64,000 nt of DNA from Methanobacteriota archaeon. Lineage in GTDB: Archaea; Thermoplasmatota; Thermoplasmata; SG8-5; DAIRED01. The DNA is taken from assembly GCA_043799545.1 (NCBI GenBank), contig JAZDNO010000005.1, positions 88,313-152,312 of the forward strand, in the 5' to 3' direction. The notes beneath the pieces were generated by a model. It saw only the letters and a list, made by a program, of their open reading frames with translations. It had not been told where the DNA came from and did not search any database. Positions 3,839 through 6,880 of the stretch are shown one piece after another. Position 1 is the stretch's first letter, and every line of letters begins with the position of its first letter. The translations under genes were made by a program, and so were the position numbers.

Positions 3839-3970
3839 GGCTATTCAAAGAGTCACGTTAATTATAAAATAGGTATCCGTCAGACAAGAAATATTGGACG
3901 ATTTTGATAGCTAACTGGTTGGACGCGTCTCTCGGCGTTTGTTAATTGTTAGTTCTGTCAGATTGGCTCG

Positions 3971-4318
3971 CTATTTTGAATTCATTCTCTCAATTAAATC
4001 CGTTTTTGTATATTTAGTGGTTATATTATTATATGAACGTTTTCGTACTTCTGCAGCATGTACAAATACTGCGCGCTGAAGCAATTCGACGTAGGCACTT
4101 CTTTTCAATCGATATAGCTTTATTCTTCCTTTCCCAACAGGCCTAGATTCAACGATTATTGCAACTCGCTCTAGATATAAAAGAGAATCTCTAATGGCTG
4201 GAAGTGATCGATCCAATGCTTCAGCAATTTCACTCACGACGTAATCGAATCTAGGATGCGCCAAAAGAAAATCAAATACTTCTATATCGAGTTTGGATCG
4301 AAACATATCTTCAATCAT
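3971..4318 (-). CDS. Winged helix-turn-helix DNA-binding protein
   Basis: DFLLAHPRFDYVVSEIAEALDRSLPAIRDSLLYL...RPVGKGRIKLYRL wHTH pattern; GGAGG SD; ATG 4318 overlaps the upstream stop; AT-rich. Confidence 0.7.
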   Translation of the reverse strand: MIEDMFRSKLDIEVFDFLLAHPRFDYVVSEIAEALDRSLPAIRDSLLYLERVAIIVESRPVGKGRIKLYRLKRSAYVELLQRAVFVHAAEVRKRSYNNITTKYTKTDLIERMNSK

Positions 4319-5585
4319 GTTTCTCTCCTCCAATTAAATTGTATGTTTTGCATATAATAATACAAATTTTTCTATGCCCTGATATAATAAATGTTAGTGA
4401 TATGAGTAACGCATAATTGTTTAATTTATTATATAAAGAATCTAACTTATTTGTATTATAAAAAATAGATAAATTTCTATCGACACTTTTATAAAAATAA
4501 CAATAAAACTCATTTTCCACATCGCATTTTACAATGAAGCCCAACCTTGAAATCTTATTATTATCATTAAGTTGTAAAAGGCAAAGTAATAAGATTGCCA
4601 GTTGTAAATACTGGTGAAGATCATTTTTGTTATTTATTGCGATGGTAAGATTCGTTGATGCACTCATTCTATTGAAGACATCAAGTGCGTTCGTGTTCTT
4701 AGAGGCATCAACTTCGAAAGGGAGTATTAAGATTCCAATTGTTGAAATTCCCATTGATTTTGCAACTTCAGTTACATATGGGGCGGCACCAGAGCCAACT
4801 CCTCTGCTGAGATCTGCGAGGACGATGGTTTTGTCGGCGCCTTCTAGCACGTCATGGATCTCTTTATCACACCTGGCAGAGCACGCCTCTCCAATCTCGG
4901 GGTAGGTATCGGACTTACCAAACGTCGGGTCCATATCCTTGCAGAAACCCAGTCCCTTGGCCCGGTGGAGGTTCTCGTTGTCCATGGCGATGGTCAGGTT
5001 AGTCGAGCCCTTCATTCTTTTGAGATACTCCATGGCGGCCGCGCGCCTCGGCGCCTCGGCCGCGAACGGCAGGACGACTATGTCGAAGGTGAAAATCCCC
5101 ATGGACTTCGCCACGTCCGCAACGTAAGGCGCGGCGCCGGAGCCGACACCTCCTCCGAGGCCGGCCACGACAATGGCCATGTCCGCCCCGTTGAGGGCCT
5201 TGCGGATTTCCGCGTCGCATCTGGCCGTGCACGCCTCCCCCACCCCGGGATAGACCGCCGATTTGCCGAAGGTGCGGTCTCTGCCGACCTGCACGACTTT
5301 GCCCGATTTGGCTTTCGTCAGGCTTGCCCAATCCGAGTTGAGGTAAGTTGCGGTGATGTTTGGCAGAGCGCTGGTGATATGTTTGTCAGGTTTGTAGCCT
5401 GCGTCGCAGCAGGCGATTATTCGCAAGCCGTGGTTCCAGGTCAGCTCTCGTTTACACTCATCGCGCTCTCTGGACATCACGTCTGATTCGCAGATTATGG
5501 CTGGTGTCATCTTCTTTCCTCCACTTTCGCTAGCTCTTTGCGACGTGCTGTCGTCGTGCATCCCATCCTTCCGCCCGGCTGGCAT
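4311..5585 (-). CDS. Divergent FtsZ/tubulin-like GTPase-domain ORF with internal duplication (may be degenerate or chimeric)
   Basis: GADMAIVVAGLGGGVGSGAAPYVA matches the tubulin/FtsZ signature loop; VVLPFAAEA follows. No recognisable T7 loop or FtsZ C-terminal domain. Start codon uncertain (5585, 5510 or 5477). Confidence 0.6.
   Translation of the reverse strand: MPAGRKDGMHDDSTSQRASESGGKKMTPAIICESDVMSRERDECKRELTWNHGLRIIACCDAGYKPDKHITSALPNITATYLNSDWASLTKAKSGKVVQVGRDRTFGKSAVYPGVGEACTARCDAEIRKALNGADMAIVVAGLGGGVGSGAAPYVADVAKSMGIFTFDIVVLPFAAEAPRRAAAMEYLKRMKGSTNLTIAMDNENLHRAKGLGFCKDMDPTFGKSDTYPEIGEACSARCDKEIHDVLEGADKTIVLADLSRGVGSGAAPYVTEVAKSMGISTIGILILPFEVDASKNTNALDVFNRMSASTNLTIAINNKNDLHQYLQLAILLLCLLQLNDNNKISRLGFIVKCDVENEFYCYFYKSVDRNLSIFYNTNKLDSLYNKLNNYALLISLTFIISGHRKICIIICKTYNLIGGEKHD
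4620..5273 (-). repeat. Gapless tandem duplication, 2 x 306 nt (4968-5273 and 4620-4925), 42-nt spacer
   Basis: Hand alignment of TFGKS...DNENL with TFGKS...NNKND: 60/102 aa identical, no indels. Confidence 0.9.
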
Positions 5586-5644
5586 GGCTTACCCCGCCTG
5601 CTCGCGAGAGCCGGGCGACCGAGAGTCTAAACATCGTTGAGGTC

Positions 5645-6037
5645 TCATCTAGAGGCTATCAACTGCTTGTTCTCGGTTACACTGAGGGCTACTTCCTGTC
5701 CCGAGGACCGCGCCATGACCCTGAACCGCTCCTCTAGCCGCTTGACCTGGTCGGCCTCGAAGAAGATGTCAATCATTCGCCTGAGAGCCTTCTCCCTGCC
5801 CGAAAACCATCCGTTCTTCACGATGCTATCGAGGTAGTTTATCTCGGCCGGAGACAACTCAACGCAGATTGGCACGTCCTGACCCGGCGACGGTTCCTCC
5901 ATCGCTTGGTCCAGGGCGATTCTGACCAGCTCGGACCTCGTGAGCCCGAGCCTCTTGGCCCTCTCCGTCACGCTGTTCACGTACTCGGGAGAGAGTCGTA
6001 TGGTCATTCGCTCGTTTACTTTTTCCGCCTGATCCAT
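5645..6037 (-). CDS. Ribbon-helix-helix (CopG/CdrS-like) protein, probably two RHH units
   Basis: ERMTIRLSPEY...LGLTRSELVRIALD, then a second unit ICVELSPAEINYLDSIVKNGWFSGREKALR. Confidence 0.8.
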   Translation of the reverse strand: MDQAEKVNERMTIRLSPEYVNSVTERAKRLGLTRSELVRIALDQAMEEPSPGQDVPICVELSPAEINYLDSIVKNGWFSGREKALRRMIDIFFEADQVKRLEERFRVMARSSGQEVALSVTENKQLIASR

Positions 6038-6066
6038 TGTTCACCCTTTGCGTCGGTTATTCATCA

Positions 6067-6158
6067 TAGGACGCTGTAGGACATATATATCCTTCTTAAT
6101 ATAATATGTTTTCGCTTAAATTTATATATTTACCACTTTCAATTTTTAGGTGTAGGAC
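6067..6158. promoter_or_regulatory. TAGGAC direct repeats at the RHH promoter (candidate operator)
   Basis: TAGGAC at 6067, 6077 and 6153; the first two are 10 bp apart, between an ATATATAT box (6083-6090) and the RHH start at 6037. Confidence 0.4.
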
Positions 6159-6358
6159 AGAAATAATTACTAATATTATATAATATTTTAGAAAATTATA
6201 TATATGAATTTACAGAAGATAACTTTATATAGCGATATAATCATAATAGTCACAATGAAAAATAGGCTTGTTGTTAGAGTGCATCCCATCCTTTGTGCTG
6301 GGGCAAAGAATCCTCTCATCATGTTACTTACATTCACCATCTCCTGGGGAGGGTTATT

Positions 6359-6682
6359 ATGAAGAAAAAAGGGGCGATTTTGACCGATTTTGATTTAATG
6401 TGTGCAATTATATACCTATTATGTATGTATAACACCCCTACAAGTGAAACCGAGATTCTCATGGGATCTCCACTTTCAATAAGGCTGCGTGTAAAAAAGC
6501 TTCTGTGTCTCCATTCGCAGGGCAATATTCCAATATTTCGCAAGGAACGCCGAAATGGTGTTTGGTATTATTGGATAAATCCAGAGGTTTATTCCGCTTG
6601 TATAGATTTACTGGCAGAAGAGAACTTTATTAAATTTGAGGATGCGTGTAAAATATTACAAAGGAAGAAGCCAGTAAAATAA
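6359..6682 (+). CDS. Hypothetical protein, possible wHTH-like fold
   Basis: 107-aa AT-rich ORF with GGGAGG SD; RKERRNGVWYYWI resembles a wHTH wing. Confidence 0.5.
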   Translation: MKKKGAILTDFDLMCAIIYLLCMYNTPTSETEILMGSPLSIRLRVKKLLCLHSQGNIPIFRKERRNGVWYYWINPEVYSACIDLLAEENFIKFEDACKILQRKKPVK

Positions 6683-6710
6683 ATCTATGATTATTTAATA
6701 CACAAACCTA

Positions 6711-6880
6711 GCCCTAATTCCCCGACCTTCAGGTTGGGGATGTAGGGCGGGTAAGCATCGGCTAACCCGGAGCATCTTTTTAGCCATACAAGGGTGTACC
6801 GCTTTACCAAACACGGGAGGAAACCATGTTCGAAACCTCCGTGTTTCTCATTCCTCACGGACGGGGGTACCCCTCTCGGG
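6711..6880. mobile_element. Possible IS200/IS605-family end remnant / MITE, no transposase
   Basis: Hairpin GCCCTA-att-CCCCGACC-ttca-GGTTGGGG-atg-TAGGGC (6711-6748) resembles IS605-type subterminal palindromes; second hairpin at 6809-6846. Right boundary is approximate. Confidence 0.45.

Follow-up and report, generated by a model that had tools for sequence, protein, structure and literature searches.

A chimeric FtsZ-like reading frame in a species-specific archaeal island, probably a degenerating extra copy of a conserved half-FtsZ gene

The window analysed here is a 64,000-nucleotide stretch of contig JAZDNO010000005.1 (positions 88,313 to 152,312) from a Methanobacteriota archaeon, assembly GCA_043799545.1. 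At window positions 4311-5585, on the minus strand, it contains an FtsZ-like open reading frame (ORF) of 424 amino acids (aa) which is open throughout and which seems to carry the same segment twice. Where did the repeat come from, and does the ORF encode a working protein? The initial annotation offered two answers: a novel pseudo-dimeric, non-polymerising protein of the tubulin fold, or a mosaic with an AT-rich donor. The second agrees better with the evidence. The ORF is probably a chimeric, degenerating extra copy of a conserved gene, formed when an AT-rich insert entered a spare, decaying operon of a ribbon-helix-helix (RHH) gene and a short FtsZ homolog, here called half-FtsZ. Coordinates of all features are collected in Table 1.

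The repeat itself is as first described. Copy 1 and copy 2 align without gaps, and 60 of 102 residues are identical. Pfam Tubulin (PF00091, the Tubulin/FtsZ GTPase domain) matches the ORF twice (E 1.9e-38), as does a profile hidden Markov model (HMM) of the closest relatives. ORF residues 26-219 correspond to positions 1-194 of this family HMM (306 bits), and residues 219-323 to positions 78-182 (E 2e-45). The match stops at position 194 and restarts at 78; family positions 195-257 are absent. Because the family HMM matches twice, the second time at such a score, the repeat is far beyond chance, with a unit of 116 codons, about two thirds of one GTPase domain. The family alignment places the true start of the ORF probably at M26 (position 5510).

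The two copies are old relative to each other. Their nucleotide identity is 78/102 at first codon positions, 83/102 at second and 28/102 at third, in line with the early remark that third positions differ. Third-position identity is at the random level in all six sub-blocks, and the longest exact stretch common to both copies is about 12 nt. Non-synonymous divergence (dN) is 0.285, synonymous sites are saturated, and the ratio of non-synonymous to synonymous divergence (dN/dS) is well below 1. This ratio had been proposed as a check on the ORF; it reflects the separate past of the copies as working genes and says nothing of constraint on the fusion. In a tree of the family, copy 1 groups with the relatives P0003 and P0004; copy 2 takes another place in that clade, with a terminal branch of 0.58. 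A tree constrained to unite the copies is worse by 5.0 log-likelihood units (approximately unbiased, AU, test p = 0.055). Two other histories of the pair were considered and rejected: recent gene conversion between the copies, on the random-level third positions in every sub-block, and deamination-type hypermutation of a duplicate, as third positions are randomised both ways and not by transitions alone.

The relatives of the ORF have one copy of the segment. A search of a 5.8-billion-cluster protein collection gave nine nearest relatives (P0003-P0011), 254-275 aa long, which share 58-73% identity with the first half of the query. Each carries the segment once and matches PF00091 only, without FtsZ_C. 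There is no two-copy homologue among them, and a metagenome scan with the junction and tail peptides returned only distant FtsZs; the cluster of the window ORF (P0002) has one member on one contig. One relative, P0004, is an intact paralog encoded in the same genome (contig C31:12982-13809), directly downstream of an RHH gene; the N-terminal part of the ORF (N-part) is 71-73% identical to it at the aa level.

Half-FtsZ genes are widespread in the order: a match was found in 20 of 22 genomes. The loci contain open frames of about 255-295 aa encoding a GTPase domain, two helices and a variable linker, and in one family the protein ends in a conserved C-terminal peptide (..SDQNLVEMGGLFQRF). A tandem-RHH gene of about 128 aa lies upstream of half-FtsZ in all ten inspected loci with enough flank. 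Tandem-RHH gene followed by half-FtsZ is an operon conserved across this Methanomassiliicoccales-type order (loci L010-L026; intact copy at C31:12982-14265). The spacer between the two genes holds a conserved GGATGGGATGCAC-containing motif across the order.

The ORF contains no T7 motif (N.D..D) and no match to Pfam FtsZ_C (PF12327), and its NCBIfam ftsZ score (157 bits) is below the cut-off of 295. The initial annotation had reported both absences, correctly, as features of the ORF; they are not specific to it. N.D..D is missing from every half-FtsZ member, so it is the family as a whole that lacks the T7 loop and the C-terminal domain. The fold is close to that of FtsZ. A structure model of P0004 has a mean predicted local distance difference test score (pLDDT) of 84, with two helices at residues 206-250 followed by a disordered tail; it superposes on the FtsZ N-domains of S. 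aureus and M. jannaschii at 1.4-1.6 Å over about 187 columns and matches FtsZ chains at E 7e-28. The ORF, modelled with AlphaFold2 from a 26-row alignment, reaches pLDDT 75-97 at residues ~30-210; residues 212-424 are mostly below 50. Copy 2 and the tail have no confident fold, and the two-lobed structure expected of a pseudo-dimer does not appear. With a repeat unit that is only a partial domain and no two-copy homologue among the sequences searched, the proposal of a pseudo-dimeric protein is not supported.

Composition divides the ORF elsewhere than homology does. GC content falls from about 0.70 to 0.13-0.29 along the ORF, which had been read as a GC-to-AT gradient; the fall is real, but by the Bayesian information criterion a single step in GC at third codon positions (GC3), from 0.73 to 0.25 at codon ~257-261, fits better than a smooth gradient. 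Copy 1 has a GC3 of 0.84, against 0.43 for copy 2 and 0.25 for the winged-helix gene downstream; the RHH and EF-1beta genes are at 0.76-0.81. The AT-rich frame stays open for some 100 further codons, as had been noted: none of 20000 mononucleotide and none of 5000 dinucleotide shuffles of the tail is open, and the other five frames hold 5-14 stops. The stop of the ORF (4313-4311) overlaps the ATG of the winged-helix gene (4318-4316), giving an 8-nt gene overlap with GGAGGAG just upstream, and the coupling noted at first is confirmed.

The AT-rich genes have no visible source. Against 1.84 billion representatives the tail gave nothing real, only a low-complexity match, and it scores like non-protein sequence in Atlas (recognition low). 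The winged-helix protein has no sequence relatives, no relatives on viral contigs and no PHROG match. Nothing else in the genome resembles these genes, and the AT-rich flanks hold no remains of the 5' half of a donor gene. Two simpler accounts of the AT-rich part were rejected. Neutral decay is incompatible with the still open tail and winged-helix frames; an AT-drifted family C-terminus is hinted at by a weak BLASTP alignment only, and the family HMM has no match in any of six frames.

The locus is an island. An EF-1beta-type gene ends at window position 3840 and an Rpp21-type gene begins at ~6891; the same flanks lie 13 nt apart on one contig of the sister genome (G001). Because both flanks adjoin there, window positions 3841-~6880 are specific to the present genome. 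Positions 4925-6118 form the GC-rich core, which at the DNA level is 76% identical to C31:13173-14346. It spans the first 219 half-FtsZ codons and the RHH gene together with some 80 nt of its upstream sequence; the rest of the island is AT-rich. Similarity to C31 ends exactly at the junction of copy 1 and copy 2. Beyond the AT-rich block the interrupted gene appears to resume: positions 3921-3895 (minus strand) are identical to C31 at 22 of 27 nt (26 of 34 when extended to 3888), where C31 has the codons NQGALKIVQ(NF). These codons begin 5 nt past the break point and have the same orientation. A score as good was reached anywhere by 2 of 300 shuffles of the AT-rich parts, position and orientation uncounted.

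Table 1. Coordinates, in window numbering, of the island and of the features within it
Feature	Position	Strand	Remarks
Species-specific mosaic island	3841..6880		Between EF-1beta and RNase P Rpp21-type genes; ~3 kb; absent in sister genome G001
Putative remnant of interrupted gene	3888..3921	(-)	Codons for NQ.A.KIVQ.F; identity to C31, shuffle test
Putative ~1-kb AT-rich insertion	3922..4931	(-)	Copy 2, tail and winged-helix gene inside paralogous half-FtsZ
Winged-helix (MarR/ArsR-like) ORFan gene	3971..4318	(-)	115 aa; fold-level matches, template modelling (TM) score 0.65-0.79
Chimeric FtsZ-like ORF	4311..5585	(-)	424 aa; ORF call, Pfam, family HMM; start M26 at 5510 probable
AT-rich orphan tail	4311..4619	(-)	102 codons and stop; ~25% GC; one hydrophobic stretch, residues 392-412
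Copy 2 of repeat	4620..4925	(-)	HMM positions 78-182 of another half-FtsZ homolog; T4 = SRGVGSG; 6/13 order-wide invariants changed; long tree branch
N-part, residues 26-219	4932..5510	(-)	Paralog of intact half-FtsZ P0004 (contig C31), 71% aa identity; T1 degenerate
Copy 1 of repeat	4968..5273	(-)	GC3 0.84; T4 GGGVGSG intact; 83/102 aa identical to C31
Tandem ribbon-helix-helix gene	5645..6037	(-)	Co-oriented, directly upstream of ORF; 89% aa identity to C31 copy; cdrS-like position
RHH gene upstream region	6038..6118	(-)	Still within block 76% identical to C31:13173-14346

From this arrangement we infer the following history. The second operon copy lies in the 3-kb island which the sister species lacks. 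A foreign AT-rich piece of about 1 kb would have entered it in frame after codon 219. At its start the insert would carry copy 2, a piece of another, AT-shifted half-FtsZ homolog that had lost its 5' end, followed by the orphan tail of that donor gene and the overlapping winged-helix gene. The apparent internal duplication would then come from the position of a homologous fragment right after the first GTPase domain. The second of the two initial proposals, a mosaic with an AT-rich donor, is supported by the GC3 step, the long branch of copy 2, the absence of the island in the sister and the remnant beyond the AT-rich block.

The motifs of the ORF have suffered on both sides of the junction. 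The three motif readings first given were correct: copy 1 has GLGGGVGSG, copy 2 has DLSRGVGSG, and T1 reads CCDAG (ACCDAG with the residue before it). Set against the canonical FtsZ T4 signature GGGTG(S/T)G, copy 1 has GGGVGSG and copy 2 SRGVGSG. T1 is CDAGYK here and GGAGCN in the family, where G52 and G53 (P0004 numbering) are invariant across 23 relatives. The N-part departs from the order-wide invariants at G52, G53 and E106. Of the 13 such residues that fall within copy 2, six are gone, three of them T4 glycines.

Lineage-specific changes point the same way. Non-synonymous and synonymous changes number 37 and 22 in the window copy, 5 and 17 in C31, and 11 and 19 in G001; the window copy differs from the other two pooled (16 and 36; Fisher p = 0.001). 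In the window lineage 25 of the 37 non-synonymous changes fall within the first 66 aligned codons. Changes from GC to AT outnumber those from AT to GC by 52 to 16. The excess of non-synonymous changes and the GC-to-AT bias are a signature of relaxed constraint.

The product, if it is made, would combine an FtsZ N-domain, its nucleotide pocket broken by the change of T1 from GGAG to CDAG, with some 200 residues for which no structure is predicted; the C-terminal helices of the family would be missing. We expect such a product neither to bind GTP normally nor to polymerise. The ORF is most likely a relic which is kept open by its recency and by the in-frame junction; at most, it may serve to pass transcription and translation to the winged-helix gene.

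Several observations weigh against a decaying insertion product. The remnant on which the insertion model leans is short (p ~0.007 before position is considered). The GC3 step lies 40 codons inside copy 2 and not at the junction, so either the insert has a mosaic origin of its own or events were more complex. Divergence from C31 is smaller in the RHH gene (synonymous divergence, dS, 0.47; 89% aa identity) than in the FtsZ part (dS 1.13; 71%), which needs an extra event such as gene conversion. The whole 424-codon frame is open, and the tail is open so far beyond chance that it, at least, was real coding sequence until recently. The stop/start overlap with its presumed ribosome-binding site looks like the joint of a working operon. 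Finally, the copy 1 core is 83/102 aa identical to C31 with dN/dS of ~0.1, and pairwise dN/dS between N-part and C31 is 0.15, no higher than between orthologs. Because of the displaced GC3 step and the closeness of the RHH gene to C31, more than one recombination or conversion event took place. The dS contrast between the RHH gene and the FtsZ part suggests that the two loci later underwent gene conversion limited to the RHH gene.

The strongest competitor to insertion and decay is a functional new protein, in which a GTP-independent FtsZ N-domain and a hydrophobic tail act as a cap, decoy or membrane tether for filaments of host FtsZ or half-FtsZ, possibly in the service of the mobile DNA which introduced it; the FtsZ modulator suggested by the initial annotation is of this kind. 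The long open frame and non-random tail, the conserved core of copy 1, the intact RHH gene and promoter-proximal region upstream and the coupling to the winged-helix gene would all be expected of such a protein. The uneven distribution of aa changes, concentrated in the T1/H1 region, could be a mark of adaptation. However, the architecture is a one-off with no relative; copy 2, as a partial domain, cannot fold alone as a Rossmann-type unit, and neither it nor the tail has a predicted fold. Both nucleotide-pocket motifs are damaged (T1 in the N-part, T4 in copy 2), the substitutions are GC-to-AT biased as in relaxed sequence, and the tail scores like non-protein. A functional protein is therefore unlikely. 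Its more specific form, in which the fusion is made, works without GTP as a cap, decoy or membrane tether of host FtsZ or half-FtsZ filaments, and was brought together with its own winged-helix regulator by AT-rich mobile DNA, is a good deal less probable again.

The repeat might also have arisen in situ, by tandem duplication of a 348-bp segment of the paralog and divergence of the downstream copy, with no foreign homolog involved. The unit of exactly 116 codons, in frame and gapless, is what such an event would leave. Both copies also belong to one narrow clade, and at p = 0.055 their pairing is not strictly rejected by the AU test. Composition speaks against it: GC3 of 0.25-0.43 next to 0.84 is impossible for a local duplicate under one mutational regime. 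Third positions are at random level in every sub-block, and copy 2 keeps ancestral residues where copy 1 is derived. Moreover, the continuation expected at HMM positions 195-257 is replaced by the orphan AT-rich tail, and the true continuation lies 1 kb off. Local duplication is accordingly improbable, though less so than the specific form of a functional fusion just given.

An assembly chimera, joining reads of a GC-rich archaeon with those of an AT-rich replicon, is the least credible explanation: the genome is a 31-contig assembly, apparently metagenome-assembled, the ORF is found only there and its composition changes sharply, but both island flanks are host genes adjacent in the sister, so that several independent false joins would be required, the copies have no identical run of more than ~12 nt in common by which a k-mer assembler might be misled, the reading frame continues across the junction, and the remnant of the interrupted gene sits where a real insertion would leave it.

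The island has further features. An 85-bp hairpin-containing repeat at 6706-6790 is 91% identical to C12:59048-59132, where it abuts an IS200-type transposase gene (Pfam Y1_Tnp, E 2.6e-30); many further copies lie at contig ends in the related genome G002. The repeat is probably an end of an IS200/IS605-family element or a miniature derivative of one. Searches of the island and of the two repeat loci gave no tRNA and no Rfam family, and hence no attachment site of the tRNA type. No convincing direct repeats flank the island; the only possible one is a short GTT(T)AATTA at both edges. An AT-rich ORF of 109-129 aa on the plus strand (6293-6682) lies in the right part; it has no relatives in Pfam, in PHROG or elsewhere in the genome and, to judge by its sequence, may encode a small DNA-binding protein.

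The RHH gene and its surroundings have features of their own. The island RHH protein belongs to a family of ~128 aa with two RHH-like halves; in NCBIfam there is a weak match to the aCcr1 family (E 0.008). The spacer motif (..GTCAGAGGGATGGGATGCACTCTG..) and a related 33-nt site were noted at window positions 5556-5570 and 6265-6297, and elsewhere in this genome (G000) at C31:~13790 and C2:~23010 (L035 ~997-1029). The 33-nt site is present once per genome in an unrelated intergenic region, with 91% identity in all genomes searched. There is no match in Rfam; a small RNA or the operator of the RHH protein is conceivable. TGTAGGACA is found twice ahead of the RHH gene, at 6075-6089 and 6151-6165, 76 nt apart; only the first copy falls within the block shared with C31. 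This repeat may be a regulator binding site. The genome also encodes further members of the tubulin superfamily: two adjacent full-length FtsZ-type genes on C6 (28010-29720) and one on C1 (40814-41296). Weaker partial matches lie at C10:100797-101054 and C30:37908-38420.

By itself the ORF matters little, being the recombination product of a single genome with broken GTP-binding motifs. It does illustrate how the insertion of a homologous fragment after its counterpart can give the look of an internal duplication. The better lead is the order-wide operon in which a tandem-RHH regulator precedes half-FtsZ; no description of it was found in the literature searched. A half-FtsZ has the GTP pocket and lacks the T7 loop, and would accept the T7 of a neighbour while offering none, which makes it a natural candidate for a regulator of FtsZ filament ends, an idea likewise not described in the literature searched. 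If the ORF were functional in the specific form given above, it would be a modulator of archaeal cell division carried by a mobile element and built from pieces of the host's own division gene.

Comparison with known systems places the locus more precisely. It shares with the half-FtsZ family (P0003-P0011) the homology of the N-part (HMM 1-194), the upstream tandem-RHH gene and the spacer motif. Where family members continue from their one GTPase domain into two helices and a disordered tail, the ORF has a second partial domain and an orphan tail, and it has lost the T1 glycines which are invariant in the family. Compared with canonical FtsZ (S. aureus 4DXD/7OJC; M. jannaschii FtsZ1 1FSZ/1W5A), the GTPase-domain fold and motifs match; the ORF differs in lacking the C-terminal subdomain, the T7 synergy loop and Pfam FtsZ_C, and in its broken T1.

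Partition cassettes of the TubZ/TubR type combine a tubulin-like GTPase with a small DNA-binding protein on mobile DNA. A tubulin-superfamily gene beside small DNA-binding genes in acquired DNA may be compared with them by analogy. No replicon or centromere-like repeats were identified at the window locus; the best sequence and fold matches are to FtsZ, and the RHH-FtsZ pair is chromosomal and found order-wide. The FtsZ-like Tubulin_2 (PF13809) families of Makarova and Koonin 2010 (PMC2875224), as described in PMC9871819, are divergent and lack FtsZ_C and Tubulin_C. As far as that description goes, the ORF and the half-FtsZ family share this absence; they match PF00091 instead and are close to true FtsZ in sequence and fold.

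The nearest parallel in arrangement is the cdrS-ftsZ2 locus of haloarchaea (Darnell et al. 2020, PMC7439475; Liao et al. 2021, PMC8406309). There, an FtsZ homolog is immediately preceded by an RHH gene of the same orientation, a synteny which is reported to be conserved in many archaea (PMC7439475). The same arrangement of RHH gene and FtsZ homolog is seen here. The likeness is one of arrangement: the RHH protein here has ~128 aa and two RHH-like halves, and the downstream gene lacks the FtsZ C-terminal domain reported for FtsZ2 (PMC7439475). The window locus, moreover, is the second and damaged copy of its operon, and the intact copy on C31 is its counterpart in the same genome.

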